Shown here: one piece after another, positions 26,338-57,892 of the stretch
How positions within the stretch are numbered: the first letter of the stretch is position 1
How the letters are laid out: the number at the start of each line of letters is the position of its first letter
Assembly (NCBI GenBank): GCA_035516795.1
Contig: DATIZX010000055.1
Span: forward strand, 21,412-85,411
From: Verrucomicrobiia bacterium
Lineage (GTDB): Bacteria; Verrucomicrobiota; Verrucomicrobiia; Palsa-1439
Direction of reading: 5' to 3'
Length of the DNA: 64,000 nt
Notes under the pieces: model-generated
The model's database searches: none
What the model saw: the letters and a program-made list of their open reading frames with translations, nothing else
What the model was told of the DNA's origin: nothing
Made by a program: the position numbers and the translations under genes

Positions 26338-26425
26338 GAGCATCCCGGGGAAGACCTCATCGAATTCGGAACCATCGTTTCCCATGTCACAAGGCCTGCA
26401 ATGGGAAGGCCGGGAGTAGGGTTCC

Positions 26426-32821: not shown

Positions 32822-32897
32822 ATCCACTTGTCAGAGGTGAGGCCAAAACGTATGAGTCGAATATGCACGTTTTGAAAACGGCCCTACTCTAAGGCTT

Positions 32898-34079: not shown

Positions 34080-34130
34080 GACACAGATCCTCTGCGTTGA
34101 AGGTTTGGTCAAACCACCCTAACTTAAAGC

Positions 34131-38998: not shown

Positions 38999-40317
38999 CG
39001 AAGTTGAGCCATTGGAAACGCGTGGGAATCGCGGCCTTTTGAAGTCCTGGTCCGTCGCAATAGCAATCGTGTCTCGCTGGCTGCTCCGCGCATTGCCTGT
39101 TTGGGAGTGAGCCGTCCCGTTAAGGCGGCGCTGACATACCGCTGCAAAATATCGGAAGCTTGCGCGTATTGTGGCACAGGAGGACGAGGAACGGTGGTTT
39201 GCAGCACCCGATAAATGGCCTGCTGCACGGGATCGGGACTGTTCTCGTAGAAACTTTTCAGTGCCGGCTGAATGGCGGTGGCTTGGTTGATTCTGCGGAT
39301 TTGCGGCAAGGCACTGATGAATTCGCAAAACTTCCACGCTGCGTCTTGGTGGTGACTGCTTTTGGCAATGGCAAAGCCGTATCCGCCTAGGGTCGAGGCT
39401 GGTCGTCCGTCGTCCGATTTTGGCATTGGCGCCAGGCCCACCTTGCCTTTGATCGGCGATTCTTCCCGCTGCGACAGCGGCCAGACGTATGGCCAATTGC
39501 GAAGGAAAATTGCCCGCCCGCTCTGAAATAGTTGACGGCTCTGTTCCTCCGCATACGTCGTCACGCCCGGCGGCGAAATCTTCCACTTCTGCACGCAGTC
39601 GGTCAGGAACGTCAGCGCCGCCACGCCCGCAGGCTGATCGAGTCCGACCTGATCCGTGTCCGGGTTGATCCAAAATCCACCGTAACCGATCAGCACTTCC
39701 AGAAAATCACACGCCAGCCCCTCGTATTGTTTTCCCTGCCAAACAAAGCCCCAGAGTTGGGGTGGATGCTGCAATTTCTGCGAAATTTGGGCCAAATCAT
39801 CGAAGGTCGCAGGCGGTCGCTCGCCCGCCTTTGCCAGCAAATCTTTACGGTAAAAAAGCACGGCGCCGTCGATCTGTGTCGGCACACGGTAAATGCGTCC
39901 CCGATACTTGCTGCCTTCGATCGAACCGCTGATGAACCGATCCCACTCGGACGGGCTCCAGCGGTCTGTCAAATCTTCCAGCCAACCGGCCGCGGCAAAT
40001 TTCGGAATCCACACCACATCGGCGTACACCAGATCATAAGCAGACTCGCCACTGAGAAACGAGGTCGTATAAAGATCTTCGCGAGCATCGGTCGCCGTCG
40101 GTCCTTCGACGTGGTGGATCTGAATTCCCGGATTCCTTTCGTGGAACTCGGCAAACAATTTCCGCCAAATGCCGGTGGTGTCCGGCTCCATTAAAACATT
40201 CAGCACCACCACGCCTTCTGTCGATTCGGCCCTTTTTTCGCAGCCGACCAAAGACGCCGCGAACAGCAGCAACAATCCCATCCAAAACCGAGAATCCCAC
40301 GTCCTGAATCGCATCAC
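38995..40317 (-). CDS. extracellular solute-binding lipoprotein, family 1 (sugar ABC transporter SBP; trehalose/maltose-type)
   Basis: 440 aa. Signal peptide with lipobox LVGC. Family-1 SBP fold similarity. Confidence 0.85.
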   Translation of the reverse strand: MMRFRTWDSRFWMGLLLLFAASLVGCEKRAESTEGVVVLNVLMEPDTTGIWRKLFAEFHERNPGIQIHHVEGPTATDAREDLYTTSFLSGESAYDLVYADVVWIPKFAAAGWLEDLTDRWSPSEWDRFISGSIEGSKYRGRIYRVPTQIDGAVLFYRKDLLAKAGERPPATFDDLAQISQKLQHPPQLWGFVWQGKQYEGLACDFLEVLIGYGGFWINPDTDQVGLDQPAGVAALTFLTDCVQKWKISPPGVTTYAEEQSRQLFQSGRAIFLRNWPYVWPLSQREESPIKGKVGLAPMPKSDDGRPASTLGGYGFAIAKSSHHQDAAWKFCEFISALPQIRRINQATAIQPALKSFYENSPDPVQQAIYRVLQTTVPRPPVPQYAQASDILQRYVSAALTGRLTPKQAMRGAASETRLLLRRTRTSKGRDSHAFPMAQLR

Positions 40318-41366
40318 AGTTTCTCCTCGGTCTGCGAATTGAAAAAGTGGAGTCGAGATTCATCGGGCTGCAACGGAATGGCGCCGCTCCAATCGCCATG
40401 CGGCTCGACCAGAACCTGCAGCTTCTGGCCCTCAACACGCACATTCAGAACGGTGAAGGCACCAAGCGGTTCAATCACTTCTACCTTGCCCGTCAAAGTC
40501 CCCTGGCCGACACGCATGTTTTCCGGACGCACGCCGACCAGCACTTCCTTTTGTCCTTGCAGAGTCTCCAGTCGCGACCGGCTTAGCGGGATTTTCTGGT
40601 TGCCTAACTTCAGTCCGTCCTCGGTCACGCGACATTTAAGAATGTTGATGCGCGGACTGCCGACGAAGTTGGCCACGAAGACGTTCGCGGGTTGATGATA
40701 AATCTCCTCAGGTGTGCCGAGTTGTTGGACGCGGGCGTTGTAAATCACGGCAATGCGGGAAGACATGGTCATCGCCTCGGTCTGGTCGTGCGTGACATAG
40801 ATCACCGTCGCGCCGAGGTCCGCGAACAGACGTTTCAATTCCGCGCGCATTCGTTCCCGCAGAATGGCGTCGAGGTTGGAGAGTGGTTCATCGAGGAGAA
40901 ACGCCTTCGGCTTGCGAATGATGGCGCGTCCGAGCGCCACCCGCTGCCGTTGGCCGCCGCTCAACGCCCGCGGCTTGCGATCCAACAACGCTTCGATGTC
41001 GAGCAGCCGTGCGGTCTCTTTGACCCGGTGTTGGATTTCGCTCGCTGAAATTTCCCTGAGCCTGAGATTGACCGCGATGTTTTCGTAGACCGTCATGTGC
41101 GGATAAAGCGCATAACTTTGAAACACCATCGCGATGTCGCGGTCGGACGGATGCACATGATTGACCCGGCGCTCGCCGATGAAAATCTCACCGTCGGTCA
41201 CGGTTTCCAGGCCCGCGATCATGCGCAGAATCGTGGATTTCCCGCATCCCGACGGCCCGAGCAAGGTCAAAAATCCCTTGTCCTCGACTTCAAAACTGAC
41301 CGACCGAACGGGAGTGACGCCCGGTGCGAAGGTCTTGGTAAGATTATGCACGAACACCCGTGCCAT
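40314..41366 (-). CDS. sugar ABC transporter ATP-binding protein (MalK/UgpC-like)
   Basis: 350 aa. Walker A GPSGCGKST, signature LSGGQRQRVALGRA, Walker B FLLDEPLSNLD, and a C-terminal TOBE regulatory domain. Stop overlaps the SBP start by 4 nt. Confidence 0.9.
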   Translation of the reverse strand: MARVFVHNLTKTFAPGVTPVRSVSFEVEDKGFLTLLGPSGCGKSTILRMIAGLETVTDGEIFIGERRVNHVHPSDRDIAMVFQSYALYPHMTVYENIAVNLRLREISASEIQHRVKETARLLDIEALLDRKPRALSGGQRQRVALGRAIIRKPKAFLLDEPLSNLDAILRERMRAELKRLFADLGATVIYVTHDQTEAMTMSSRIAVIYNARVQQLGTPEEIYHQPANVFVANFVGSPRINILKCRVTEDGLKLGNQKIPLSRSRLETLQGQKEVLVGVRPENMRVGQGTLTGKVEVIEPLGAFTVLNVRVEGQKLQVLVEPHGDWSGAIPLQPDESRLHFFNSQTEEKL

Positions 41367-41626
41367 GGCTGTTCTCCCTTGTTAACGCAAGGCGTTTAAG
41401 CTCTGTGGGAAGCATTTTCACACAAGCAGGAACAACCCGAAAGACAAAATCCGGTTTAATCAGCCAAGCTGAAAGCTATTGGGCCCGAGAGGAGCTCGTC
41501 ATCCTTGCGGCGCGGTTCCACCTCACGGTTTTCGGAGGATCAGGAACACATGCATTCGCTCTGCCAGGGGAAGTCACTTCTCGAGTAATGCCGCAAGACT
41601 TCGGTACGATTCCCATCTCAACAAGC

Positions 41627-42028
41627 TCAGGCCGAGGAACTCCGAGCGCGGCTCAGCGTCAGTCGGCCCTGAGCCACGATTTCCCCGCCGACGCGCAAAA
41701 CGGTTTCGAATTGAGAGAGCGCCCCGAAGTCTTTCGCGAGCATCACTTCAATTTCCAGCGTCTGATCGGGCAATACCGGCTTGATGAATCGGAACTGCGT
41801 CACCGCCGCGAGAAAAGCGGCGCCCGGTTGCTGCCAAAGTACACCGGCCGCTTGCGCGGCGCATTCGATCAGCAGCACGCCCGGCATCAGGGGATTGCCG
41901 GGAAAATGGTCGGCAAAAAACGGCGCGGCCGGGTCGAGCCATTTGCGTCCGCGTCCACGTTTTCCAGCGTCAAGAACCTCGAACGCATCGATGAACGAAA
42001 ATCCGGGACCATGTGGGGTCAAGCTCAT
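41627..42028 (-). CDS. hotdog-fold 3-hydroxyacyl-ACP dehydratase (FabZ/FabA/ApeI-like)
   Basis: 133 aa. FFADHFPGNPLMPGVLLIECAAQ is the catalytic His-containing motif of FabZ-like dehydratases. Start overlaps the LolA-like stop by 4 nt. Confidence 0.7.
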   Translation of the reverse strand: MSLTPHGPGFSFIDAFEVLDAGKRGRGRKWLDPAAPFFADHFPGNPLMPGVLLIECAAQAAGVLWQQPGAAFLAAVTQFRFIKPVLPDQTLEIEVMLAKDFGALSQFETVLRVGGEIVAQGRLTLSRARSSSA

Positions 42029-42669
42029 TCTTGAGGCACCTCGAAAACTTTCTTGTCCAGCGGCTGGTTGCGGCGTACGCGATCAAAATCATAGATGATA
42101 TAGCTGTTCAGAATCAGCCCGATCCGCATCGATTGGATATCCATCGACGGCCACGTCATCACATTTTCCACCGAGCATAGCGGAAACATTTGGAGGCGGT
42201 GTTTGGGGGTCAATGTGACCGTCCTCGTGTTGTTACTGCTGCTGGTGCTCGCGTCGAACAGCCCGGCAAAATTCGTACAACCGTTTTGGAAAAAGCTCAG
42301 CAAGAACTGGACGTTCTGTGTGGGTTTCCCGTGGCGCACTTCCAACTTGTACTTGGCGAGCCGTTTCCTGTCACGCTTGATGTACAATTCGTCGCCGCGG
42401 ACCAGCACGAGTTCGGGCGCGGGATTCGTGAATACAATGGCGAGAAGATCGGGCGCCTGGTAGCAGATGTGGCCCAGGCTGACGACGTGCCGCGGTGGAA
42501 ATGTCCAATGGAACGTTTGCCGCAGATCCGCCTCGAAGGTTCGCGTCGCGACCTGATGCGCGACAAAAACGTCGGCATCGGTGTCGGCCCGGGCGAACGG
42601 TCGGTTCGCGAGCAGGATCAGGGCTGCGCCAACGGTGCGAATTGATACCATTGATCGGGATGATTGCAT
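42025..42669 (-). CDS. LolA-like outer-membrane lipoprotein carrier family protein
   Basis: 214 aa. Signal peptide followed by a LolA-like half-barrel. Gene context is typical of aryl-polyene/xanthomonadin-type clusters. Confidence 0.5.
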   Translation of the reverse strand: MQSSRSMVSIRTVGAALILLANRPFARADTDADVFVAHQVATRTFEADLRQTFHWTFPPRHVVSLGHICYQAPDLLAIVFTNPAPELVLVRGDELYIKRDRKRLAKYKLEVRHGKPTQNVQFLLSFFQNGCTNFAGLFDASTSSSNNTRTVTLTPKHRLQMFPLCSVENVMTWPSMDIQSMRIGLILNSYIIYDFDRVRRNQPLDKKVFEVPQE

Positions 42670-43508
42670 ATTGATTCTCGAAATCGGCCGGCCAGTTCGA
42701 TCGTGTGTGCGCGCACCTCGGCCTGGCGGTCAGGACCCCGCCACTTGGGCCGAAACGGCGGAAGCGCTTCCATGGCGTACTTGCCGGATGGCGTCGCCAG
42801 AATGGTGGCAGGCACGAGGGGCGCGCCTGTCAACAAGCTCAGCCAAACGGGCCCCGTAGAAAACGCCACGTTTCCATGGGGAAGCTCCAGCCAAACGGCA
42901 TCGGCGTTGCCGTGCGGGCGATCCATCAACATGGCGACGCATTTGCCCTGGGCGAGCTGATGGGCGATTTCCACAAAGCTGAACTCGTTGTCTCCGACCT
43001 CCAGCGTTTCTGCGCCCCAACGTTGACGGTAGGCGGCGCGCCACCGTCCCAGGGCCAGACTCGGCTCCGGCAACGATAACACGACCAGCGGGAGGTGAAA
43101 TTGCTCCATCAGCAAACCGCCGAGTTCAAACAACCCGGAATGAACCGTGACCAGCAACGCGCCCTTGCCGTCCGCCAATGCATTTTGCAGGTGCTCGAAA
43201 CCATGTCGCGTCTCCATCAATGCCAGCGCTTCTTCGCGGGTCCGGGCGCCGAGTTGGAAATAATCGGCCAACGTCGCCCCAAAGTTGTGAAACGTGCGCC
43301 GTACCGTTTCTTCGTGAAGGTCTGGGCCACAAACAAGCGCTAGGTTGCGGCGCAACGTCAGTTGCACGTGGGGATGGGTCCAGCGGTAAACTTCGGCCAA
43401 TCCGCGGCCCAGTCGGCGAGCGCGTCCGATTCCGAGCGCGCGCGCCAGCGCTACGCCGGCCTCAAACCAGAGAGCTCGGTAAAATGTCTGGGAATAATGC
43501 GGTTTCAA
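42618..43508 (-). CDS. lysophospholipid acyltransferase (LPLAT; LpxL/HtrB-like lipid A biosynthesis acyltransferase family)
   Basis: 296 aa with the LPLAT family fold and a conserved H(x4)D-type region near the N-terminus. 4-nt overlap with the halogenase gene. Confidence 0.7.
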   Translation of the reverse strand: MKPHYSQTFYRALWFEAGVALARALGIGRARRLGRGLAEVYRWTHPHVQLTLRRNLALVCGPDLHEETVRRTFHNFGATLADYFQLGARTREEALALMETRHGFEHLQNALADGKGALLVTVHSGLFELGGLLMEQFHLPLVVLSLPEPSLALGRWRAAYRQRWGAETLEVGDNEFSFVEIAHQLAQGKCVAMLMDRPHGNADAVWLELPHGNVAFSTGPVWLSLLTGAPLVPATILATPSGKYAMEALPPFRPKWRGPDRQAEVRAHTIELAGRFRESICNHPDQWYQFAPLAQP

Positions 43509-44761
43509 GACTCAGAGTAATCGAGCCGCGGCACGATCGGCACGCGTCGATGAATGGCACAAACGAAATGGAATAATTTGACCCGCCACCACACCTTGAA
43601 CATGCGATGAAAATTCCCGGCCAGAACCGAGTTCACGGCGGGCACCATACCCAAACCGCCCCGGGGATACATCAACACTTCAAATGCGCGATTGTCGTAA
43701 TACATTTCCACCATCTCGCGATAAACGTCCATATAGCGATGCACGTGGCGCGAATAATCTTGTTGTTCCCGGATGCTCAAAGCCCGGCCTTGCGCGTGCG
43801 CGCCGCAAATGAGCCGCGTCGCCAACTGCGCTGATTTCGTGGCGATGTGCACGCCGGACGAAAAAATCGGGTCGATGAACCCGGCCGCGTCGCCGATCAA
43901 CAGGGCGCGGTCCGTGGCCAGTTGCTCGTGATAGTAACTGTAATCGCTGGCTTTGTAGAAGGGGCTGATCTGCAGAGCCTCATTCATCCGCTGCCGCAAT
44001 TCGCGGCTAAGAGCGATCGTTTTTGCGAACCATTCTTCGACGGTGCCACCAAACCGTTTGAAATCATCGAGCGATCGCACCATGCCGACCGACATTTTTC
44101 CGTTTGTCAGGGGAATCAACCAGAACCAGCCGTCTTTGATGCGCACGATGGTGATGTGACCTTCCGCGTCGCCGGGATTTCGGTAGACGCCTTTGAAATG
44201 CGCATAGACCGCGATACGTTTCGGCAGGTTCATCGGTTTTCGGGCCACGCCCAGCGTCCGAGTAAGAAAAGCGTCGCATCCGCTGGCATCGATCAACCAC
44301 CGGCTGCGCGCCTCGCCTTCGCGGTACACTATCCGCCACTCGTCGCCATCCCGACTGACGGTTTTCGCTTCACAGCCTTCGCGCACTTCGCAACCACAAC
44401 TGGCGGCGTGGTCGAGCAAGACCTCGTCGAACCGGGCACGCTCGACCTGGAATGTCTGTCCGTAGCCGGGTACCAATCCGCGGGCGAACCAGAAACGCTG
44501 CCACCGGGACCCGTTGCCGACAAAAAACTCTGCACCGTGTTTCGGCTGGAACCCGGCCGCTTCGATCTTCGGCCACGCGCCGCTTTCTTTGAGGACATCG
44601 TTGCCAAACGGCAACAGCGACTCGCCAATGTGAAAACGTGGAAAAACTTCTTTCTCCAAAATCAACACCCGCCGACCGGCCTTGGCCAGAAACGCCCCGG
44701 CCGTGCTGCCGCCGGGCCCGCCGCCGATAACGATTGTGTCGTAAACCATCGGCGCACTCAT
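43505..44761 (-). CDS. flavin-dependent halogenase-like FAD oxidoreductase
   Basis: 418 aa. GxGxxG (VIGGGPGGS). WxWxIP motif (GWFWLIPL). FxxPxxSxG motif (FIDPIFSSG). Both of the last two are signature motifs of flavin-dependent halogenases. Confidence 0.75.
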   Translation of the reverse strand: MSAPMVYDTIVIGGGPGGSTAGAFLAKAGRRVLILEKEVFPRFHIGESLLPFGNDVLKESGAWPKIEAAGFQPKHGAEFFVGNGSRWQRFWFARGLVPGYGQTFQVERARFDEVLLDHAASCGCEVREGCEAKTVSRDGDEWRIVYREGEARSRWLIDASGCDAFLTRTLGVARKPMNLPKRIAVYAHFKGVYRNPGDAEGHITIVRIKDGWFWLIPLTNGKMSVGMVRSLDDFKRFGGTVEEWFAKTIALSRELRQRMNEALQISPFYKASDYSYYHEQLATDRALLIGDAAGFIDPIFSSGVHIATKSAQLATRLICGAHAQGRALSIREQQDYSRHVHRYMDVYREMVEMYYDNRAFEVLMYPRGGLGMVPAVNSVLAGNFHRMFKVWWRVKLFHFVCAIHRRVPIVPRLDYSES

Positions 44762-44770
44762 GGAACGACC

Positions 44771-45043
44771 CTACTGTTTTGCGCCGGGCGGTGGCTGTTG
44801 CGCCAGCCAACGACGCAGAGTACCCAAAGATTGCATGACCTGGCGCGCGACTTCCGCGTCGTTGATCACGATACCATAATGCTTCTCAATCGCCACGGTG
44901 AGTTGGAGCGCGTCCAGTGAATCCAGTCCGACACCTTTGGGGCCGAATAATGGAGTATCCTCAAGGATCTCACCAGGTTGGACCCTGAGAATACAGTTTT
45001 CGACAACCAGTTTTTTCAATTCGTCCAGAGAAATATCAGCCAT
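44771..45043 (-). CDS. acyl carrier protein
   Basis: Listed ORF starts at 45184, but ACP homology begins at M48 (MADISLDELKK...). Phosphopantetheine-attachment motif GLDSLDALQL. Confidence 0.8.
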   Translation of the reverse strand: MADISLDELKKLVVENCILRVQPGEILEDTPLFGPKGVGLDSLDALQLTVAIEKHYGIVINDAEVARQVMQSLGTLRRWLAQQPPPGAKQ

Positions 45044-45072
45044 TTGTCGAGCCTCACGCTCCTGTATGTAAA

Positions 45073-47355
45073 TTATCCGCCAGCCAAAAGCAAAGCCGAA
45101 GATTCGCCATTGAGCCCCCACACGGGTAGCAGTATTTCGCGCCGCTGGTTGCGGGCAAGTTCGGCGGCGTGCACTGTATTCCAAGCTGCCGACGCCGTAA
45201 AGGCCTCACCGTGGTAGGGAAACGCGGCTGGTGTCCCTTTCATCATTTCCCTTTCGATTTCTCCCAACCAACTATGCTGCGCGGTGTGGCAGACCGCGAT
45301 GTCCGCAGGGAAATGTGCGAAACAATCCTGCGCCGCCTGCCGGACTTCCGCGCGGGCGCGATAAGTGAAGCCACCGGCCATTTGCGCGATGCGCACCCCT
45401 TGTTGCACATTGGATTTTTGCAGTAACAACGCGGCAGCGCCTTCGCTGGGCACAAATCCCGTTCGACCGTGCGGCGGCAGCCAGCCGCCAACCGCATAGG
45501 CATCAATCGAGATCGGGTCGAGTTCGGTCGCGCCGATCACCAGGGCGTATTCGACCAGTTGATTGGCCAACCACACCTCCGCCACCCGCAAGGCGCCCAC
45601 CCAGGCCGCATCATCGCTCACCAACGAATAACAGGGCCCACCAACGCCGAGGATAGCGGCAACGTGACTCGTCGCAGAGTTAAAAACTGTTTCTGGAAAA
45701 ACATTCGGGCTGGCGAACCGCTGGCCGTTCTTCAGAATTCCTTCAAAAAACCGACGGGTCGGCACAACCACGCCCGTGTTGAAAGCCGCAACGATTCCCA
45801 GTCGGTCAGGCCGCAGCGTCGGTTCTGCAGCCATTGCCTGTTGCGCCGCACCGAGCATGAACAACGTGATGGGGCTGGCCCGTCGCACGCGCATTTCGTT
45901 CTGAAGTTTTGCCAGCGGCTCGCGCGTCTGATCCACGCAGAACACCGTGTGCTCACCGCTGGCGACGCTAAGACCTTTCATGCGTTGCGGGGTTTCCGAA
46001 GGCAGCACCGCACCCAGGCCAACGATGGTTAGCGTTGAACGGGCCTCGTGCCTGTTTGGGGCAACCACCGACAGGCGGGAGGCGTGTCCAACGTTTTCCT
46101 CATACCGTTTGAATACCAAGGCGGCATTTGACCCGCCGAACCCCAGGTTCATGGATAAGACTGCGTTCATTTCGGGGTGGCTTTCGCCAACCGCCACCAG
46201 ATTGGTTGCGACGCGCGGCTCCGGCCGCCGCACGTTCAGATTTGGCGGCAAATGACCTGACCGCAGAGCCGCAATGACGAACAGCGCTTCAATGCTGCCC
46301 GCTGCGCCCAGCGTGTGCCCGATGGCGGCTTTGGTCGAACTGATCCGAATCGATTTTGGAATTGGCGAATCAGGCTGTGCGGAATCGCCGTTTCCAAAGA
46401 CTGTGGCGAACGCCGCACATTCACTCGCATCGTTCAGCAGCGTGCCCGTTCCATGCGCGTTCACATAACTGATTTCCGACGCATCGCATTGCGCTCTTGC
46501 GAGGGCCTCTCGCATCGCTCTCACCGCCGGCGCTCCGCATGGATCCGGCTGCGTGAGATGGTGCAAATCGGTCGTATGTCCGTAGCCGGCCAACTCGCAC
46601 AGCATGTGGGCACCTCGCGCGCGAGCATGCGATTCCGATTCGAGAACCGCAAAGGCGGCCGCCTCGCCGAGCATCAGTCCGTTGCGTCCCAAATCGAACG
46701 GGCAACAACGCTCGGGGCTCATGGTTTGTAGACAGTCGAAACCCACGTAGATCAACTCGGTCAAGGCTTCAAAGCCTCCCGCCAAGACGCAGTCATGCGC
46801 GCCGGCACGAATGAGATCGGCGCCATGACCAATCGCATTGGCGCCGCTGGCGCAGGCGTTGGCGATAATGGTGATCGGCCCGCGAAAACCGAGGTGCCGT
46901 TGGAGGTCGTGGATTTGGTGATGCGCCTGATAACGCACGATGTACGGATACAATCCGGCGTTATCCTGCTGCGCCAACATGGCTCGTAGAAACTTTTCGC
47001 CCCAGGCCATCCCGCCGCCGGTCGTGCTTACGGAAAGAGGCAGCCACGCGAACTTTGATCGTCCAGCTTCGTCCAACAATCCGGCTTGCGCCAGTGCTTC
47101 CCGCGCGGCAGGCAGAGCGAGACGCGCGGCCCGCGACAACCGGGACAGTTGTTTGGGAGTGAGATCCGGAAGTCCCGGCAGTTGTGCCGACGCGGCCCGT
47201 TTGCAGCGGCATCCGGCCACATCAAACAGGGTCACCGGCGCGGCGGCGCTTTCTCCGGCGACGATTCGTTGCCACGAGGTCTGGAAATCAAAGCCCAGCG
47301 GCGTCACCGCTCCCATTCCGGTGACAACGACGCGGGTTTGGGGATGAGCGACCAT
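45073..47355 (-). CDS. fused beta-ketoacyl synthase didomain: active KS (Cys-His-His) + KS-like/chain-length-factor-like domain
   Basis: 760 aa. Domain 1 has ANACASG (active Cys), NAHGTGT and KAAIGHTLGAAG. Domain 2 (about 420-760) is KS-fold but lacks the His-His dyad, so it is CLF-like. Confidence 0.8.
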   Translation of the reverse strand: MVAHPQTRVVVTGMGAVTPLGFDFQTSWQRIVAGESAAAPVTLFDVAGCRCKRAASAQLPGLPDLTPKQLSRLSRAARLALPAAREALAQAGLLDEAGRSKFAWLPLSVSTTGGGMAWGEKFLRAMLAQQDNAGLYPYIVRYQAHHQIHDLQRHLGFRGPITIIANACASGANAIGHGADLIRAGAHDCVLAGGFEALTELIYVGFDCLQTMSPERCCPFDLGRNGLMLGEAAAFAVLESESHARARGAHMLCELAGYGHTTDLHHLTQPDPCGAPAVRAMREALARAQCDASEISYVNAHGTGTLLNDASECAAFATVFGNGDSAQPDSPIPKSIRISSTKAAIGHTLGAAGSIEALFVIAALRSGHLPPNLNVRRPEPRVATNLVAVGESHPEMNAVLSMNLGFGGSNAALVFKRYEENVGHASRLSVVAPNRHEARSTLTIVGLGAVLPSETPQRMKGLSVASGEHTVFCVDQTREPLAKLQNEMRVRRASPITLFMLGAAQQAMAAEPTLRPDRLGIVAAFNTGVVVPTRRFFEGILKNGQRFASPNVFPETVFNSATSHVAAILGVGGPCYSLVSDDAAWVGALRVAEVWLANQLVEYALVIGATELDPISIDAYAVGGWLPPHGRTGFVPSEGAAALLLQKSNVQQGVRIAQMAGGFTYRARAEVRQAAQDCFAHFPADIAVCHTAQHSWLGEIEREMMKGTPAAFPYHGEAFTASAAWNTVHAAELARNQRREILLPVWGLNGESSALLLAGG

Positions 47356-47359
47356 CGGA

Positions 47360-48811
47360 CTACGTCAGCCGCTGAAGCGCCGGGTAATATTCCCAGAGCG
47401 GACCCACCACTCCACGGTGGCGGAGTCGGTCAGACAACGGGACAAAGGACGTTGGGGGATTGCCGATGAGCCAGTTGGGGCCTTGCTGGCGGAATTCCTC
47501 CAACTGTTGCAGCAATTCCTCTTTGGTAAGAGCCGGAGAAATGTAGTAAACGGGGCGAAGCAGATCCGCGTCGGCTGACAGCAGTCCCTCGCGCACGGCG
47601 CGCGCGAACAAGGGCGTGCCGGGGTAAATGCGCATACCCGCCAGGGCAAAAATGACCGCGCCAGGCAGCCGCTTCGAATTGGCAAATGTGGTCTGTAGCG
47701 TCTCGCGGGTTTCGCCCGGCCCGCCGCAGATCAGGAAGTGTCCGTAGTGGATGCCGGCGGCCCGCGCCAGTGTGCTGGACTTCAAAATGTCTTCAAAGGT
47801 GATCGCTTTACCGTACTCCGCCAGTACCGAATCGCAGAGGCTATCGGCACCGAATTCGATATGCGTCAGTCCGGCTCGCGCCATCAAATTCATCAGCTCG
47901 GCCGTCAACCCTTTCGGGCGGAGAAAACAGGTCCAGGTCACTTCGACACCCCGCCGCAGTATGGCTTCACAAACACGGGCGATGTGATCGTTTTGCAGGT
48001 TAAAAACCGCATCGACAATAAACACGTGTTTCGTTCCCTGGCGTTGGAGCGTCATCAGCTCAGCCGCGATCGCCTCGGGCTCCCGGCGGCGGATTCGCCG
48101 ACCTTCGATCAAGGGATAGGTGCAATAACAGCACGGCATACTACAACCCCGTTGCGTCTCGATGTTCAACATGGCGCTGTGCTGTAGATAATAGTTCATC
48201 AACTCCGGTGGCCGCTCCGCTGTGAAGGCGTAAATCGGCTCCTCGGGATCACATGGGTTGACGACGATCTGATCCCCGCGCCGGTACACCAGTCCCGGAA
48301 TGCCGCTGGAGTCGTCCCCAGTGGTGATCGCCTTGATCAACTGGACAAACGCGACTTCGCCGGGACCTTGGACACCAAAATCGGCACCGCTCAACCTCAA
48401 AAGCTTTTCGGGGAAAATAGAAAACGCAGTGCCGCCGAGGACGATCGGGGAAGGGCTGCAGCTACGCACTTTATGGCTGAGTGCGATCGCATCGTCGTAA
48501 TAGGTTTCCTGGCTCTGGAACTGCACATCATCCACGTTGCGAATGGAAATCCCAATCACGTGAGGTTGGAATTCAGCGATGGCTTGTTCGAGCGGCACGT
48601 TCATCGCCTGCCGATCCACCCAGCAGGTCGTGTGGCCAGCGTGGCGGAGCGCGGATTCCAAGTGGGCCAACCCCAGCGGGAATACAGGGTATGGCTGGTC
48701 ACAGCGGTTGCTGCTGATCAATAGAACCCGTCGCGAATCCATCGCCGCATTGTAAAAACAGAACTCCTGAAAGCAATCCGTAAATTCCCTTTTCATTCCC
48801 CTCGATGGCAA
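47360..48811 (-). CDS. B12-binding domain radical SAM enzyme
   Basis: N-terminal cobalamin-binding Rossmann-like region. CxxxCxxC (CSMPCCYC). Start probably at M24 (48742). 4-nt gap to the KS gene. Confidence 0.8.
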   Translation of the reverse strand: MPSRGMKREFTDCFQEFCFYNAAMDSRRVLLISSNRCDQPYPVFPLGLAHLESALRHAGHTTCWVDRQAMNVPLEQAIAEFQPHVIGISIRNVDDVQFQSQETYYDDAIALSHKVRSCSPSPIVLGGTAFSIFPEKLLRLSGADFGVQGPGEVAFVQLIKAITTGDDSSGIPGLVYRRGDQIVVNPCDPEEPIYAFTAERPPELMNYYLQHSAMLNIETQRGCSMPCCYCTYPLIEGRRIRRREPEAIAAELMTLQRQGTKHVFIVDAVFNLQNDHIARVCEAILRRGVEVTWTCFLRPKGLTAELMNLMARAGLTHIEFGADSLCDSVLAEYGKAITFEDILKSSTLARAAGIHYGHFLICGGPGETRETLQTTFANSKRLPGAVIFALAGMRIYPGTPLFARAVREGLLSADADLLRPVYYISPALTKEELLQQLEEFRQQGPNWLIGNPPTSFVPLSDRLRHRGVVGPLWEYYPALQRLT

Positions 48812-48919
48812 ACTGTCCGAGCGCCTGGCGCCAGTAATCTTCTTGACGGCAAGTGTGGCCCGCTGTATCTGACGCCACGCAAGTTGCGCATTTCACGGCG
48901 GGAACAAATCAATGTTTGA

Positions 48920-53215: not shown

Positions 53216-54073
53216 ATGAAGAAGCTGGCCTCGGTGCTTTGCGTCGTGTGTCTATTCGTCAGTTGGCTTTCGGCAACGGCGGTTGCCGCGGGAGAAAAAC
53301 TGACCAACGCCTCAGTAGTCGAGATGCACAAACTCGGCCTCGGCGATAATGTCGTAATCGAGAAAATCAAGGTTTCGGCCTGCAACTTCGACGTCGGCCT
53401 TGACGCCCTGAAGCAACTCAAGGATGACGGCATCTCGGATGCGATCATTCAAGCGATGATTGCGGTCGGCTCTCCCACCAAACCAGAAACTGCGGCTACC
53501 GTGGGCACGGTCGCCGGCGATCCCAATGACCCGCAAGCCGCTCATGAAACCGGTATCTGGTTATTCCAGCAGTTGGACGGCAAGAATAAGATGACCATGC
53601 TCACTCCGAATACATTTGATCAAGTCACCACTGGAGGTGGTTGGGGCGTCGCCTGGGGCGGCACCGCCAAGAGCCGCGCAGTTCTGCAAGGCGAGCATGC
53701 CGATCTCCAGATTCCCAGTTCCGTGCCGGTATTTTACTTTTATTTCGATAGGAGCGGCAGCAGTTTGAGCAGCGCTTCCAAAGTCGCCACTGCTCCGAAT
53801 GATTTTTCGCTGGTCCAGATGGAAATCCGCAAATCGAAGCATCAGCGGCGCTTGGAGATTGGCAAGGTCAATCTCGGCGGATCCAAGCAGGGCCTCAGCC
53901 CCAAGGTGATTCGCGCGATTCAATCCGAGAAAGTCGGCGATGGCATTTACAAAGTCACCCCGCAAGAAAACCTCAAGGATGGAGAATACGCTTTTGTTTA
54001 CAATGCCAGCCAATATGGCGGCAAGGTGTTCGACTTTGGCGTCGAAGCTGGAATGGAAGCGTCAAGGAAGTGA
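53216..54073 (+). CDS. secreted hypothetical protein
   Basis: Signal peptide and a GGAG RBS. No recognisable domain. Confidence 0.5.
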   Translation: MKKLASVLCVVCLFVSWLSATAVAAGEKLTNASVVEMHKLGLGDNVVIEKIKVSACNFDVGLDALKQLKDDGISDAIIQAMIAVGSPTKPETAATVGTVAGDPNDPQAAHETGIWLFQQLDGKNKMTMLTPNTFDQVTTGGGWGVAWGGTAKSRAVLQGEHADLQIPSSVPVFYFYFDRSGSSLSSASKVATAPNDFSLVQMEIRKSKHQRRLEIGKVNLGGSKQGLSPKVIRAIQSEKVGDGIYKVTPQENLKDGEYAFVYNASQYGGKVFDFGVEAGMEASRK

Positions 54074-54180: not shown

Positions 54181-55353
54181 TTATGTGCCGGCTTCGCTGC
54201 AGCGGTATAAGTTCCACCAGATCCGCCGTTGCGACCGGAACACGACCGGCCACGGGAGCCAGCAAGCGAGCCAGGTGAGCGCTCGCAGCCCGCTCCAGCC
54301 CGCCAACACCGGCGCGTCGCGCAGCCGCGGCGCACAGCCAACTCGGGCACATAACCGGGCCGCAACCAGCGCTTCCAACAGCACCGTCACACCCAAGCCG
54401 GTCCAGGTCCACCACGCTGTCGGTTGCCACAACACCGCTCCGAGCCAGCCGAGCACGGGTGTAATGATCAACTCCGCCGCGTAGCCTGCGGGCCGACACC
54501 ACCGCACCGTCTTGTGCCAACGCAGGTAATGCAGGACGGCATCGGTCCACCGGGTTTCCGCGGACAAGGTTTCCAGTGTCACGCTGCTGATGTGGACCGG
54601 CGCGAGCCGTCGGCCCAGGAGATTGTCCTCGGCCATGCGGGCACCTAGCTCGTCCCAGGGCAGGCGCTGTTGGAGGTCGTCGGCGTCGAACAACATCGCT
54701 GCGCCAAATGCGAAACTCGGTTTGCCCCACGCCCGACAGGCCAGCACGCCGGGATAGAATTCGGCGTTTACAAACAGTGCTTCCAACCACATCGGCCGCA
54801 GCGTCACCCGGCGGATGACGTACGGACAGGTCACCAGTCCTGAGTTGGTTGCCGACTGCTCGCCGCGCAAAGTCGTCAACAATCCGGGGACTGCAATCAT
54901 GTCCGCATCGCTCCACAACCAGAGTCGCCCCTGCGCCCGACCGGCCAAAGCATGCCACCACGAGCTTTTCGGACTACGGAAGGTGGCCGGCCGCGGCTGA
55001 CACACGACCGTAAACCGCGCCTTCGAATAGCGCCGCCGCCATGCGGCAAAAATCGGTTCCCAGGCCGCGGCGTCCTGCTGTTCCACACCGAACAACACTT
55101 CCGCGCCGTCACCGGTTTGCGCAACGAAGGACTCGAGCGCGGCAACAAGTTTGGACGAAGGCACCGGCGTGCGCAACGCGCAGAGCGGTTTGAAAACGGT
55201 GAGCGTCTGGGCTGACCCGGTCGTCGGGGTGGGGGAGGCGGCACCTTCGTTTTCGGCCGTCATGCGACAGCGAACCAATCGGAGGGCGTAAATCCACCAA
55301 CCTGCGGCCAGCGCAGTCCAGCCGACCAACAGCCACTCAAGCCGCGGCCACAT
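54181..55353 (-). CDS. membrane-associated GT2-family glycosyltransferase (ceramide glucosyltransferase/HpnI-like)
   Basis: 390 aa. N-terminal TM. DxD-like SDAD, a QxxRW-like LRWHKTVRW, and C-terminal TM helices. Confidence 0.5.
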   Translation of the reverse strand: MWPRLEWLLVGWTALAAGWWIYALRLVRCRMTAENEGAASPTPTTGSAQTLTVFKPLCALRTPVPSSKLVAALESFVAQTGDGAEVLFGVEQQDAAAWEPIFAAWRRRYSKARFTVVCQPRPATFRSPKSSWWHALAGRAQGRLWLWSDADMIAVPGLLTTLRGEQSATNSGLVTCPYVIRRVTLRPMWLEALFVNAEFYPGVLACRAWGKPSFAFGAAMLFDADDLQQRLPWDELGARMAEDNLLGRRLAPVHISSVTLETLSAETRWTDAVLHYLRWHKTVRWCRPAGYAAELIITPVLGWLGAVLWQPTAWWTWTGLGVTVLLEALVAARLCARVGCAPRLRDAPVLAGWSGLRALTWLACWLPWPVVFRSQRRIWWNLYRCSEAGT

Positions 55354-56368
55354 CTGGTTTCACACGAGATGCGACACTGGCGGTGGCTGCGTCAGAATCC
55401 AATCGAAGGCGAAACCAATCGACCGCCTCGCGCACGGTGGCTCGGGCCGGACGCTGGGGCTGCCAACCCAATTCTTCAGCCGCTTTCCGGCAGGAATAGC
55501 GTGCGCGGCGCCGCGCATGGAGCGCTGTTTCCCAACACAAACGATCGTTCCCGGCGGTTTCGCCAATGGCGCCCGCCACGGCGATGATGCCCCACGGCAG
55601 GCAAATCCGTGGCGCATCTTGTGCCGTGCACCCGGCCAGCAACTGCAACAACTCGAACAGCGTCAAATGATGATGCCCCAGCAGGTAACGTTCGCCGCGA
55701 CGACCTCGTTCCGCCACGACCAGAATGCCTTCGGCCAGTTCGCTGACATTGATCACATTCAGACTCGTGTGCGTTGCGAACGGGAAGCGTCCCCGCAAAA
55801 AATCCAAAACCATTCGACCCGTGGGAGTCGGTTCCTCATCCTCGGCGCCAAGCGGCGCCACGGGGTTGGCGATGACGACGTCCAGTCCCCGCCGAGACCA
55901 ATCCAGCGCCACGCGTTCCCCGAGCCATTTGGAACGACGATAATGTTGCCCGGCCGCGACGCGCTCGGGGAAATCCCGCTCGGTGACCAGGCCGTTGCGC
56001 GACTCCAGCACGCTGCACGAACTGACGTGTACGAACCGTTCGACCCGTTGGTCCCAGGCCGCCCGCAACATATTCTCCGTGCCCCGATGGTTGGCGGCTT
56101 CCATCGAAAGCCGGTGGCGCCGGCCAAAGCGGTACAAGCCGCCCAGATGAATCACCGTCTGCACGCCGCGAGCCGCCTGCTGACAGCAGACCGGTTCCAA
56201 CAAATCGCCCACCAGAATTTCCACGCGGTCGCCAAACAATCTCCGCGCCTTGAATTCGTTGCGGCAGAGAAGCCGGACCGTGGCGCCCCGACTGAGAAGC
56301 TTGCGGACGACGAACCGCCCAATAAACCCGGTGCCACCCGTGATGAGAGTTTGCGTCGACCCATGCAT
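55337..56368 (-). CDS. NAD-dependent epimerase/dehydratase (SDR; HpnA-like)
   Basis: Rossmann motif TGGTGFIGRFVVRKLL. Start taken at M31 of the listed ORF. Confidence 0.75.
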   Translation of the reverse strand: MHGSTQTLITGGTGFIGRFVVRKLLSRGATVRLLCRNEFKARRLFGDRVEILVGDLLEPVCCQQAARGVQTVIHLGGLYRFGRRHRLSMEAANHRGTENMLRAAWDQRVERFVHVSSCSVLESRNGLVTERDFPERVAAGQHYRRSKWLGERVALDWSRRGLDVVIANPVAPLGAEDEEPTPTGRMVLDFLRGRFPFATHTSLNVINVSELAEGILVVAERGRRGERYLLGHHHLTLFELLQLLAGCTAQDAPRICLPWGIIAVAGAIGETAGNDRLCWETALHARRRARYSCRKAAEELGWQPQRPARATVREAVDWFRLRLDSDAATASVASRVKPDVAAA

Positions 56369-56390
56369 TGGGGCAGAATCTACGATAATA

Positions 56391-57110
56391 ATGCACGACG
56401 GAAAAGTGATTTTCGTGGCTGACGATTTCGGGATGGACGCGGAGACCAATCGCGCCATTCTCCACGCTCACCATCACGGGGCGCTGCAGGGGGCCAGTTT
56501 GATGATGGGACAACAGGCGACCGACGACGCGGTGCGCCGGGCTCGTGAAAATCCCTCGCTGCAAATCGGTTGGCATCTTCATCTCTGCGATTCGCAACCC
56601 GTGACGTGCCACTCGTGGCCGTGGGGCAATGCGTACGTTCAGGCAGGCTGGAGGATTGGGCTGATGCCCGGCGCGCGTCGCTTGATGCGCCGCGAAGTCG
56701 CCGCGCAATGGGAGTTGTATCAACAAACAGGCTTGCCCTGCGCGTTCGTCAATTCCCATCACCATCTTCATGCCCATCCCATGGTCTACGCCGCGCTGCT
56801 GGAAGTCTTGCCGCGACCGTTCAACGGCTGGCTGCGTCTGGGCAGGCCCTGTTTCTTTGGGCCAACTGAGAACCAGCACCTTTATAGTTGGGCGGACGGA
56901 ATTTTCATGCGGACCCGCCGCCGCCATTGTCCCTTTCGTTGCAGTGACACAATCTGGGGACTCGGGCGGACTTATCGAATGCAGGCACAGGAAGTCATTG
57001 AGGCTGTGCAACGCTTGCCCGAGGGTTTGCATGAGTTTTATTTTCATCCGCGCTCGAAGGACGATGCCGATACACAATGTTTGCTGGAGTTAAGAAAATG
57101 CGGATTCTAA
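56391..57110 (+). CDS. YdjC/ChbG-family carbohydrate deacetylase (HpnK-like)
   Basis: Characteristic N-terminus (VIFVADDFGMDAETNRAIL...G.L.GASLM) of YdjC family. Start taken at M48 of the listed ORF. Confidence 0.65.
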   Translation: MHDGKVIFVADDFGMDAETNRAILHAHHHGALQGASLMMGQQATDDAVRRARENPSLQIGWHLHLCDSQPVTCHSWPWGNAYVQAGWRIGLMPGARRLMRREVAAQWELYQQTGLPCAFVNSHHHLHAHPMVYAALLEVLPRPFNGWLRLGRPCFFGPTENQHLYSWADGIFMRTRRRHCPFRCSDTIWGLGRTYRMQAQEVIEAVQRLPEGLHEFYFHPRSKDDADTQCLLELRKCGF

Positions 57111-57892
57111 TCGCCCTGTCATTGGCCGCGGTCCTGACCGGATGCGCGACTGTTTCGCCGACTGCCGGACCCGGGCGTCCGTTCGATTTCCGACGCGACA
57201 CATTCGCGTTCCACAATGAACTCGTATTCAAATCCTCGGATCCGTCCTCGGTTTCTGGCGTCGCCACGACGCTGCAGAAATTGGAGCATCCCTACACGCG
57301 GCGTTGTTTCATCATGGCGGCCGGCGTCGTGCAATTCTGGAAACATGCGCGCTTCGATCCGTCGGCGCCGCCCGTGGCGGAGAGCGAACTGGCTCGTCGC
57401 ATCCGCGAGGTCCGCGATGACGCGGCTTGGTGGCCCGGTGAACCGCCCACCAAACGCGTCGTGTTTCCCGGATTTGCCGGCTTGCGCGACCTCAGCCAGC
57501 GCGAGGGCCGGTTGCTGCGGGCCAACATGGGCGCGGGCTGGACCACGTATTTTCATCTGCGCAAATTCCCCATGCCGTTCGTGCCTTCGCGCACCCATCA
57601 GGCGCGCTTGTGCCAGGAAGTGCGCGCCTGGCTTCGCTCAGGCCATCCCATGGTTCTCTGGCTCTATAATTTTCCCGACGTCAACATCAACCACGCCGTG
57701 ACCGTCTTCGAGGAAATCGCGCCGCCCAATCCCGATCAGATCGCCTTTCACGTCTACGACCCGAACTACACTGATGCACCGCGCACGCTCATATTTGACC
57801 GGGCCACCAGTGCGTTTTATTACGAGAAGACTTTCTATTTCCCCGGCGGGCTCGTCCACGCTCGGCAGATGTTCACCAGCTTGCTGAGATGA
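57098..57892 (+). CDS. lipoprotein, hypothetical
   Basis: Signal peptide with lipobox LTGC. No recognisable domain. Confidence 0.45.
   Translation: MRILIALSLAAVLTGCATVSPTAGPGRPFDFRRDTFAFHNELVFKSSDPSSVSGVATTLQKLEHPYTRRCFIMAAGVVQFWKHARFDPSAPPVAESELARRIREVRDDAAWWPGEPPTKRVVFPGFAGLRDLSQREGRLLRANMGAGWTTYFHLRKFPMPFVPSRTHQARLCQEVRAWLRSGHPMVLWLYNFPDVNINHAVTVFEEIAPPNPDQIAFHVYDPNYTDAPRTLIFDRATSAFYYEKTFYFPGGLVHARQMFTSLLR

Follow-up and report, generated by a model that had tools for sequence, protein, structure and literature searches.

Is the flavoprotein encoded next to an acyl carrier protein (ACP) and a ketosynthase (KS) in this locus a halogenase, and if so, on what would it act? The window, by which we mean the whole 64-kb stretch of DNA analysed, comes from an uncultured verrucomicrobium (MAG), and the public record of the protein (HUJ09682.1; PGAP) calls it only 'NAD(P)/FAD-dependent oxidoreductase'. 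A sequence-only reading of the same DNA had placed an open reading frame (ORF) at 43505-44761, pointed to a GGGPGG segment and to the motifs WxWxIP and FxxPxxSxG in its translation, and proposed a flavin-dependent halogenase, rather than a generic geranylgeranyl reductase, with an ACP-tethered or lipid substrate.

Motifs, fold and family placement of HUJ09682.1

The ORF matched these coordinates exactly, and all three segments lie within it. They are listed here with the lysine that we predict to be catalytic.

43505..44761, minus strand: predicted flavin-dependent halogenase gene, ATG start, 418 amino acids (GenBank HUJ09682.1)
44708..44725, minus strand: GxGxxG dinucleotide (FAD) binding motif GGGPGG, residues 13-18
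44540..44542, minus strand: codon of Lys74, predicted catalytic lysine, in the context FQPKHGAE
44111..44128, minus strand: WxWxIP motif WFWLIP, residues 212-217
43853..43879, minus strand: Fx.Px.Sx.G motif FIDPIFSSG, residues 295-303

Across all six reading frames of the 64-kb window, this ORF contains the only instance of WxWxIP and the only instance of FxxPxxSxG. When the protein was shuffled 200,000 times, WxWxIP appeared 87 times and FxxPxxSxG 1,044 times, and the two never appeared together. We compared the protein with 38 homologues reaching down to 48% identity (alignment A1) and in a 25-sequence alignment (A2) that included two proteobacterial homologues, from Burkholderia and Ralstonia (34-36% identity). 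Residues W212, W214, I216 and P217 of the first motif, F295, D297, P298, F300, S301, S302 and G303 of the second, and Lys74 were invariant in both alignments, and G13, G15, G18 and E47 were invariant in A1. Lys74, E47, the WxWxIP residues and most of F295-G303 are also kept in the Burkholderia and Ralstonia proteins. By the same two alignments, a conserved C-terminal tail of 60 residues (FEV..MxP...AGN...WWR..LF...C...RR.PIVPRLD) is specific to the verrucomicrobial clade.

The sequence-only reading had asked for the catalytic lysine and glutamate to be confirmed against known halogenases. In alignment, Lys74 falls on the lysine of the segments IKRG, KKYG and KKFG found in CndH, ChlB4 and PltA. 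The glutamate, E346 of PrnA, we regard as a feature of tryptophan halogenases alone that is not retained in the phenol/pyrrole group, of which this protein is a member.

Family searches pointed in the same direction. The ORF passes the Pfam model PF04820 (Trp_halogenase), scoring 90.6 bits (E 1.3e-25) where the cutoff is 21. Its 14 best solved relatives by sequence (E 4.5e-54 to 1.6e-15) are halogenases, except for the unannotated flavoprotein 3nix; the best matches are CndH (4.5e-54), ChlB4 (6.8e-53), PltA (2.8e-51), FasV (8zop), Mpy16, 3nix, CmlS and Bmp2, and the first non-halogenase in the PDB sequence search is a pentachlorophenol/rifampin monooxygenase (1.8e-12). The AlphaFold2 model (pLDDT 91.8, pTM 0.91) gave the same picture, with halogenases and 3nix making up its top 40 PDB fold matches (query TM-scores 0.72-0.88). 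CndH (3e1t), PltA (5dbj), ChlB4 (7fco), Mpy16 (5buk) and Bmp2 (5bva) have the motifs and the catalytic lysine in common with HUJ09682.1 and align to it by fold at 27-32% identity (sequence E about 1e-54 to 1e-42, query TM 0.78-0.87); Bmp2 is also close to it in size (target TM-score 0.87). The best structural match by TM-score is 3nix, a flavoprotein/dehydrogenase of about 407 amino acids from Cytophaga hutchinsonii that was solved by structural genomics (TM 0.88 by query and 0.90 by target, rmsd 2.5 Å, 30% identity, sequence E 5.7e-47); the literature searched told neither its function nor its gene context.

A neighbour-joining tree places the protein inside a clade with CndH, ChlB4 and PltA and apart from geranylgeranyl-reductase-like proteins, and the checks that the sequence-only reading had called for turned out in its favour. 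The claim that the motifs separate halogenases from reductases also held among the sampled homologues. Among those of at least 31% identity, from many phyla, every one carries the lysine and WxWxIP, and FxxPxxSxG is missing from only two, whereas none of the reductase-like homologues of 30% identity or less has the lysine or either motif. Most of the latter carry a K-x-C-G-D segment where HUJ09682.1 has HIGESLL.

These comparisons bear directly on whether the protein might instead be a flavoprotein of the geranylgeranyl-reductase type, saturating double bonds in a polyene or isoprenoid, which we regard as highly improbable. It has the FAD-binding fold of the geranylgeranyl reductase family (TIGR02032; 3oz2) and scores 134.7 bits against the NCBIfam model of that family (GG-red-SF), but this is below the cutoff of 158.8, and the assignment was rejected. 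Moreover, the family lacks the lysine, WxWxIP and Fx.Px.Sx.G, most of its members have the Cys-Gly-Asp segment, and 3oz2 ranks only 48th by fold, with a query TM-score of 0.70, while the best-matching structures of halogenase type reach 0.88. Taken together, the motifs, the lysine, the predicted fold and the family placement support HUJ09682.1 as a putative flavin-dependent halogenase.

The operon and its relatives

The predicted halogenase gene is the fourth of a tight seven-gene operon on the minus strand, whose junctions measure, in order, +4, +29, +9, -4, -34 and -4 nt. As the sequence-only reading had stated, the ACP gene and the KS gene lie just upstream. The other operon genes and the conserved genes farther upstream are as follows.

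47360..48811, minus strand: B12-binding radical SAM protein, operon gene 1 (NCBIfam TIGR04072, 409.7 bits, cutoff 360)
45073..47355, minus strand: fused ketosynthase/chain-length-factor-like protein (KS-CLF), 760 amino acids (Pfam ketoacyl-synt N and C)
44771..45043, minus strand: ACP, 90 amino acids, with a GLDSL phosphopantetheine site (Pfam PP-binding)
42618..43508, minus strand: LpxL/HtrB-type (Lip_A_acyltrans) acyltransferase (Pfam PF03279), overlapping the halogenase stop by 4 nt
42025..42651, minus strand: LolA-like protein, 208 amino acids (NCBIfam LolA2_flexi, 45.8 bits, below the cutoff of 125)
41627..42028, minus strand: FabA/FabZ-type, ApeI-like dehydratase, 133 amino acids, last operon gene (Pfam FabA, 59.7 bits)
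53216..54073, plus strand: conserved function-unassigned protein, 285 amino acids (tblastn, 44% identity, E 1e-61 to a syntenic 298-amino-acid protein of locus L006)
54181..55353, minus strand: GT21 glycosyltransferase (HpnI-like), upstream in the conserved cluster (Pfam PF13506)
55337..56458, minus strand: HpnA-like NAD-dependent epimerase/SDR (Pfam Epimerase)
56313..57104 (tblastn match), minus strand: YdjC-like (deacetylase family) coding region (query YdjC of L004, 54% identity, E 1.9e-81)
57077..57892, plus strand: DUF8321/DUF8322-type protein at the cluster edge (tblastn with L004 and L006 homologues, 51-55% identity)

The gene order KS, CLF, ACP, halogenase, acyltransferase (with or without an MMPL domain) and LolA-like is kept in five verrucomicrobial loci at 51-74% identity, and in four of the five an ApeI-like dehydratase comes next. 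Orthologous genes also occur in a cultured verrucomicrobium, Pelagicoccus sp. SDUM812002 (L028). In our window, the ketoacyl-synt N and C domains occupy residues 7-375 of KS-CLF and are followed by a C-terminal KS-like half; KS and CLF are likewise fused in L005 and are separate genes in L004 and L006. The ACP gene ends 9 nt upstream of the halogenase gene, and this position is kept in L004, L005, L006, L012 and L013. The acyltransferase is fused to or lies beside an MMPL transporter in L004, L005, L006 and L013. The LolA-like assignment is weak, although the L006 homologue has the Pfam LolA domain and tblastn gave matches too, and the dehydratase just passes the ApeI-like model (29.1 bits, cutoff 28.5). 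Farther upstream, the GT21 gene is syntenic in L004, L006 and L012 (NCBIfam HpnI 126.9 bits, below cutoff) and the epimerase/SDR gene in L006 and L012 (NCBIfam HpnA 259.9 bits, under its cutoff of 367). In L004 and L006, the homologues of the cluster-edge protein carry the DUF8321/DUF8322 Pfam families, and the 285-amino-acid protein gave no Pfam or NCBIfam match. Promoter and terminator scans of positions 41000-49500 returned counts at or below chance.

The locus is an aryl-polyene/xanthomonadin-type gene cluster. It encodes a KS with a CLF-like partner, a dedicated ACP and an ApeI/ApeP-type dehydratase, together with genes that fit envelope attachment: the LPLAT-type acyltransferase, the weakly assigned LolA-like protein and the upstream GT21 protein. 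Among the ORFs scanned in the window there was no aryl-acid-activating AMP-ligase, RND/MMPL exporter, FabG-type ketoreductase or flavin reductase; flavin reductase partners of halogenases are often encoded elsewhere. To the same core the verrucomicrobial relatives add genes for an AMP-ligase and an MMPL exporter, and some also have a further halogenase-like gene. The AMP-ligase adjoins the cluster in L004, L006, L012 and L013, and no aryl-activating ligase was found within the flanks examined in L005.

Clusters of this kind are known from other bacteria. The Xanthomonas, Variovorax and Azoarcus BH72 clusters and that of BBQ02181.1, a homologue encoded on a plasmid of Burkholderia sp. SFA1, follow the same logic of KS, short CLF, ACP, halogenase, acyltransferase and LolA-like protein. 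Xanthomonadin-type clusters and the relatives examined here also share an exporter, a deacetylase or glycosyltransferase, an AMP-ligase and, in the relatives, a Na+/H+ antiporter. The version in our window differs in occurring in Verrucomicrobiota, in its fused KS-CLF, in having neither an MMPL domain nor an AMP-ligase, and in its extra TIGR04072 B12 radical SAM gene. In the Xanthomonas and Variovorax clusters the KS/short-CLF pair comes with a halogenase gene, and xanthomonadins carry zero to two bromine atoms (PMC3691225). Halogenation is a recognised tailoring step of aryl-polyene head groups (PMC8253772).

The likeness to the Xanthomonas and Azoarcus halogenases rests on these cluster descriptions, and the Burkholderia plasmid protein stands in for xanthomonadin halogenases in our tree and sequence comparison; no Xanthomonas or Azoarcus locus was among the matches listed in the A2 profile search of genome contigs, a mixed sample. 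BBQ02181.1 (37% identity, all motifs) groups next to the verrucomicrobial halogenase clade and lies in a FabF/AMP-ligase/acyltransferase/MMPL/FabG cluster. XanC, with which the sequence-only reading had suggested a comparison, we take to be the ACP of the xanthomonadin pathway, so that 'XanC-type halogenase' was probably a slip.

Not every homologue has such neighbours. In strain LW23 the homologue (50% identity) adjoins CtaA/UbiA genes, and the Ralstonia homologues (34%) are found within a flagellar locus, together with FabG2; in view of these contexts we rejected a link of the whole family to this cluster type. The homologue of L003 (about 50%) showed neither a KS nor an ACP beside it, in a locus that a contig end cuts just upstream.

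Could such a protein be a halogenase-like flavoprotein that does not halogenate, for example the ring hydroxylase that xanthomonadin-type pathways need and that is still unassigned? BBQ02181.1 is annotated 'hydroxylase', which along with the generic PGAP name of HUJ09682.1 leaves room for this reading, and a paper on Lysobacter noted a missing 4-hydroxylase. HUJ09682.1 also scores against the NCBIfam monooxygenase models QhpG (129.9 bits) and LodB/GoxB (105.3 bits), but far under their cutoffs of 240 and 400, and both assignments were rejected. The Azoarcus paper lists ArcA, a halogenase homologue, and mentions no halogenated arcuflavin (PMC3949708), so that such a gene does not guarantee a halogenated product. 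However, Lys74, Fx.Px.Sx.G and WxWxIP, the last a proposed block to hydroxylation, are all invariant, and every annotated close structural relative is a halogenase. We therefore give a hydroxylase or similar enzyme only a small chance.

Proposed chemistry and substrate

We think it moderately probable that HUJ09682.1 belongs to the CndH/PltA/ChlB4 group of two-component, FADH2-dependent halogenases and acts as a tailoring enzyme in an aryl-polyene (xanthomonadin/flexirubin-type) type II polyketide-lipid pathway of this verrucomicrobium. Its likely role would be to chlorinate or brominate an aryl-polyene intermediate at the phenolic head group while that intermediate is bound to the ACP. We infer the halogenating activity, the choice of halide, the substrate and the timing, and the steps set out here are drawn from known family chemistry.

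Reduced flavin from a separate reductase would bind the GxGxxG fold and react with O2 to a C4a-hydroperoxide, and attack on it by chloride or bromide would give hypohalous acid. Functions of WxWxIP, Fx.Px.Sx.G and the lysine have been described, with WxWxIP proposed to block hydroxylation (PMC10696468; PMC8407142). The WxWxIP strand would hold the organic substrate off the flavin, and hydroxylation would be avoided because of this separation. The hypohalous acid would then reach Lys74 by way of a tunnel that the Fx.Px.Sx.G segment lines, and the lysine would direct electrophilic substitution on an electron-rich aromatic ring. The target would most likely be the hydroxyphenyl head group, either of the starter or of the polyene as it grows, on the neighbouring ACP. 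Finally, the LpxL-type acyltransferase would move the halogenated acyl chain to a (glyco)lipid anchor, with the LolA-like protein taking part in delivery to the outer membrane.

Of the two substrates offered by the sequence-only reading, the ACP-linked one fits the gene context, and the cluster type implies that an aromatic head group is a likelier target than a plain lipid chain. Given the absence of an aryl-activating ligase from the window, the aromatic starter is a deduction from the relatives and not from this locus. That gap, shared with the flanks of L005, would also suit halogenation of a non-aromatic ACP-bound chain, at an activated methylene or polyene carbon, as a persistent or cryptic step of a non-aryl lipid pathway linked to the TIGR04072 enzyme. 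Operon gene 1 passes this model, which is the 'lipid biosynthesis B12-binding/radical SAM protein' equivalog, and the best NCBIfam model for HUJ09682.1 itself is CmlS (NF033113), an enzyme that makes a dichloroacetyl group. The CmlS score, however, is 189.8 bits against a cutoff of 900, and this equivalog was rejected. Moreover, L012, which has this radical SAM gene in the same position and is the closest of the relatives that share it, has an AMP-ligase module directly after its dehydratase. The cluster type is known for aryl polyenes, and the targets of flavin-dependent halogenases are nearly always electron-rich aromatic rings. A non-aromatic target thus seems improbable to us. We give slightly less credence still to a more specific version, in which the cluster of this lineage acquired a 'ladderane-type' B12 radical SAM enzyme, while its aryl-acid ligase and MMPL exporter were lost or were absent from the outset. 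Working on an ACP-bound polyene or beta-keto chain that has no aromatic ring, the halogenase would in that case yield a so far undescribed type of halogenated envelope lipid, perhaps also modified by the radical SAM enzyme.

The timing of the predicted halogenation of the head group can also be read in two ways. A true halogenase might act late, once the pigment is free or anchored to a lipid and no longer an intermediate on the ACP, in the manner of the phenol halogenases RadH (8gu0) and FasV (8zop), both of which are among the best sequence and fold matches of HUJ09682.1. FasV acts on a free polyketide, a free late-stage phenol. RadH is reported to act in final biosynthetic steps, and for CndH and ChlB4 phenolic substrates tethered to an enzyme have been proposed (PMC8407142). 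With RadH and FasV among the close relatives, homology does not separate tethered from free substrates. Gene context argues against the late step: the halogenase gene directly follows the ACP gene and overlaps that of the acyltransferase, in an order kept in the verrucomicrobial loci examined. The protein is also short and near Bmp2 in size and fold, and Bmp2, like PltA and Mpy16, halogenates carrier-bound pyrrolyl groups. We consider late halogenation unlikely, though less so than the hydroxylase and non-aromatic readings. The closest known systems are the carrier-protein-dependent ('variant B') halogenases CndH, PltA, ChlB4, Mpy16 and Bmp2, which are among the top matches of HUJ09682.1, and the adjacent ACP gene, whose order is conserved, fits this variant. 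The partner here would be a type II aryl-polyene PKS/FAS-like system, in contrast to the NRPS or pyrrolyl/tyrosyl carriers of the CndH/PltA group.

Meaning for verrucomicrobial envelope pigments

Halogenases of aryl-polyene clusters are already known, their place beside the KS/CLF pair in aryl-polyene/xanthomonadin clusters having been described in 2013, and the finding is a refinement of annotation and no surprise; nothing here overturns current understanding. The evidence supports the specific name flavin-dependent halogenase over the generic oxidoreductase label. The literature searched gave no in vitro activity data for any aryl-polyene-cluster halogenase, including those of flexirubin and xanthomonadin clusters, and a small enzyme whose cognate ACP is encoded next door would make a convenient model for enzymology. 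Halogenated aryl-polyene-type pigments have so far come mainly from Xanthomonas, where they are brominated, and chlorinated flexirubins occur in some Bacteroidota. Our reading predicts that some Verrucomicrobiota should make chlorinated or brominated envelope pigments of the aryl-polyene type.

Motifs, fold and family of the 418-aa protein

The minus-strand ORF agrees exactly with the coordinates assigned by an earlier sequence-only reading, which had also listed GGGPGGS and both halogenase motifs; all three are present:

43505..44761, minus strand, halogenase ORF, ATG start, 418 aa
44708-44725, minus strand, GGGPGG, residues 13-18
44111-44128, minus strand, WFWLIP, residues 212-217
43853-43879, minus strand, FIDPIFSSG, residues 295-303

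In a six-frame translation of the whole window, WxWxIP and FxxPxxSxG occur once each, both within this ORF, and the two appeared together in 0 of 200,000 shuffled versions of the protein. An identical sequence from a Verrucomicrobiae metagenome-assembled genome (HUJ09682.1) is labeled only "NAD(P)/FAD-dependent oxidoreductase" in GenBank.

The protein scores 90.6 bits against Pfam Trp_halogenase (cutoff 21). Apart from 3nix, a flavoprotein without annotation, its 14 top sequence matches among solved structures are flavin-dependent halogenases, among them CndH (E-value 4.5e-54), ChlB4 (6.8e-53), PltA (2.8e-51), FasV (8zop), Mpy16, CmlS, Bmp2, RadH, CtcP, and PltM, compared to 1.8e-12 for the top-ranked non-halogenase. 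Likewise, the 40 top PDB fold matches of an AlphaFold2 model built from 38 homologues (pLDDT 91.8; pTM 0.91) are halogenases and 3nix (query TM-scores 0.72-0.88), with monooxygenases and the reductase 3oz2 ranking below them (0.60-0.70). The top NCBIfam model was the CmlS halogenase, where 189.8 bits is far under the equivalog cutoff of 900, and CmlS equivalog membership was rejected. Membership in the geranylgeranyl-reductase superfamily (134.7 against a cutoff of 158.8) and in the QhpG, LodB, and GoxB monooxygenase families (all scores under the NCBIfam cutoffs) was also rejected.

The sequence-only reading had named a missing catalytic lysine and clustering with non-halogenating monooxygenases as grounds against a halogenase; neither was found. 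In the alignments with these solved structures, Lys74 (FQPKHGAE) aligns with the lysine of CndH (IKRG), ChlB4 (KKYG), and PltA (KKFG). A neighbor-joining tree without bootstrap places the protein in a Verrucomicrobiota clade that adjoins a Burkholderia aryl-polyene-cluster homologue within the CndH/ChlB4/PltA group. Across 38 homologues with identities as low as 48%, K74, E47, W212, W214, I216, and P217 are invariant, as is F295-G303 except for residue 296, and the lysine and motif-defining positions were unchanged after Burkholderia and Ralstonia homologues (34-36% identity) were added. In a sample of genome and plasmid loci from many phyla, all homologues of at least 31% identity have WxWxIP and the lysine, and all except two have Fx.Px.Sx.G. 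By contrast, the geranylgeranyl-reductase-like homologues (≤30% identity, mostly archaeal) lack both motifs and the lysine, and most have K-x-C-G-D where halogenases have H-I-G-E-S. Within this sample, the motifs tell the two groups apart.

Operon and comparison with homologous loci

The halogenase gene is fourth of seven in a tight minus-strand run with junctions of +4, +29, +9, -4, -34, and -4 nt, and the ACP and KS neighbors reported from sequence belong to this operon:

47360-48811, minus strand, B12-binding radical SAM protein (NCBIfam TIGR04072 passed, 409.7 against 360)
45073-47355, minus strand, fused ketosynthase (KS)-chain-length factor (CLF)
44771-45043, minus strand, ACP
43505-44761, minus strand, halogenase
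42618-43508, minus strand, Lip_A-type acyltransferase
42025-42651, minus strand, LolA-like protein
41627-42028, minus strand, ApeI-like FabA/Z dehydratase

The order KS, CLF, ACP, halogenase, (MMPL)-acyltransferase, LolA-like is common to the verrucomicrobial loci (homologues 51-74% identical), and the dehydratase gene follows in four of five. KS and CLF-like partner form one 760-773-aa protein in the window and in locus L005 (7351-9672); L004 and L006 encode them separately. The acyltransferase stands alone, without MMPL, in the window and L012, and is the C-terminal domain of an ≈1,050-aa MMPL transporter in L004 (11284-14409) and L005 (11287-14505). TIGR04072 is the equivalog "lipid biosynthesis B12-binding/radical SAM protein" (rSAM_ladder_B12); its gene, directly upstream of KS-CLF, has a counterpart at the same position in L012 (62% identity) and none in L004, L005, L006, or L013. 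No AMP-ligase, MMPL, ketoreductase, or flavin reductase gene was found within the 64-kb window.

Locus-dependent extras in these relatives include genes for an AMP-ligase, a Na+/H+ antiporter, and a HydE-like radical SAM protein (208 bits to HydE, under cutoff), which together form a module near the cluster. The module occupies 13117-16572 in L012, directly after the dehydratase gene, and 17044-20630 in L006; the 64-kb window lacks it. Some clusters encode, alongside the first, a longer second halogenase-like protein (516-537 aa; L006 15568-17181, L003 1942-3492, and a further locus, L028, 7699-9180), absent from the window, with WAWLIP for WxWxIP and FLDPFYSPG for FxDPFYSPG; in L006, GGALAG replaces GxGxxG. 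This protein could be a source of dihalogenation.

Other extras, upstream in the relatives, are genes for an HpnA-like epimerase, HpnI-like GT21, YdjC, and DUF8321/8322 proteins. This set is present in the window at 54181-57892 (HpnI-like GT21, HpnA-like epimerase at 259.9 bits, under cutoff, YdjC/HpnK-like, and DUF8321/8322 proteins), beside the polyketide core and syntenic with L004, L006, and L012. Its hopanoid-glucosamine-like content is a hint that the head group or anchor could be an amino sugar. A second B12-binding radical SAM gene, with a DUF4070 domain (50287-51885, plus strand; no NCBIfam model over cutoff), lies in the interval from the core operon to the GT21 gene, adjoined by a beta-lactamase-family gene (48920-50254). 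Sugar ABC transporter and trehalose/glycogen genes lie 3' of the dehydratase gene, where an alpha-glucan/trehalose block (large amylase-maltokinase fusion, isoamylase-type and other alpha-amylase-family genes, and a GH15 trehalase-like gene) and the transporter adjoin the cluster end (21056-35939 and 37230-41366). At 62004-63176 (plus strand), the window encodes an outer-membrane protein of the LpxR (lipid A deacylase) family (279 bits).

Farther afield, a Burkholderia megaplasmid homologue (37%) neighbors FabF, NodB-type deacetylase, MMPL, acyltransferase, AMP-ligase, and FabG genes. Some ≈50%-identity homologues lie outside an aryl-polyene-type context; that of Verrucomicrobia bacterium LW23 (50%; locus L001, 7211-11395) is immediately 3' of COX15/CtaA and a long UbiA-family prenyltransferase gene, and its neighborhood has neither KS nor ACP genes. 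On a Ralstonia wenshanensis megaplasmid, FabG2 and a homologue (34% identity, all motifs kept) sit amid a flagellar gene locus (L011, 11249-13218); Ralstonia accounts for 118 of 310 matching plasmid records.

Cluster type and proposed role of the halogenase

The window cluster is of the aryl-polyene/xanthomonadin/flexirubin type, and Verrucomicrobiota aryl-polyene clusters have already been reported through genome mining. Head-group halogenation is listed among the standard aryl-polyene tailoring steps (PMC8253772). A 2013 Lysobacter study noted a halogenase gene accompanying the KS/short-CLF pair in Xanthomonas and Variovorax and gave the number of bromines on xanthomonadins as 0-2 (PMC3691225). 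In the Azoarcus arc cluster, ArcA is entered as a halogenase beside a Na+/H+ antiporter, deacetylase, LolA, exporter, acyltransferase, dehydratase, and AMP-ligase, although that paper does not mention a halogenated product (PMC3949708). The antiporter is shared with the module of the verrucomicrobial relatives, but not with the window. Apparently, no aryl-polyene-cluster halogenase has been characterized biochemically in the literature searched.

In this halogenase family, FADH2 supplied by a separate reductase, O2, and halide yield hypohalous acid, which passes through a tunnel lined with Fx.Px.Sx.G to the lysine that directs electrophilic substitution, while WxWxIP holds the substrate off the flavin (PMC10696468; PMC8407142). 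Because the closest solved relatives include enzymes that probably use carrier-tethered phenolic or pyrrolyl substrates and an ACP gene adjoins, we propose that head-group halogenation takes place on the ACP. The substrates of PltA, Mpy16, and Bmp2 are pyrrolyl groups on a carrier. CndH and ChlB4 are thought to use carrier-tethered phenolic substrates (PMC8407142). RadH-like enzymes are equally closely related to the window protein, RadH being reported as a late-acting phenol halogenase (PMC8407142). For the window halogenase, we infer activity, halide, substrate, and timing as follows: a hydroxyphenyl head group would be chlorinated or brominated while on the ACP, the chain would then be moved onto a lipid anchor by the neighboring acyltransferase, and the LolA-like protein would serve delivery to the outer membrane. 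The same acyltransferase/LolA-like delivery has been proposed for E. coli aryl polyenes (PMC8253772).

The motifs, lysine, fold, and synteny of the window protein support its original interpretation as a flavin-dependent halogenase within a verrucomicrobial aryl-polyene-type cluster. This assignment is no surprise, and it usefully sharpens the generic database annotation of HUJ09682.1 to flavin-dependent halogenase.
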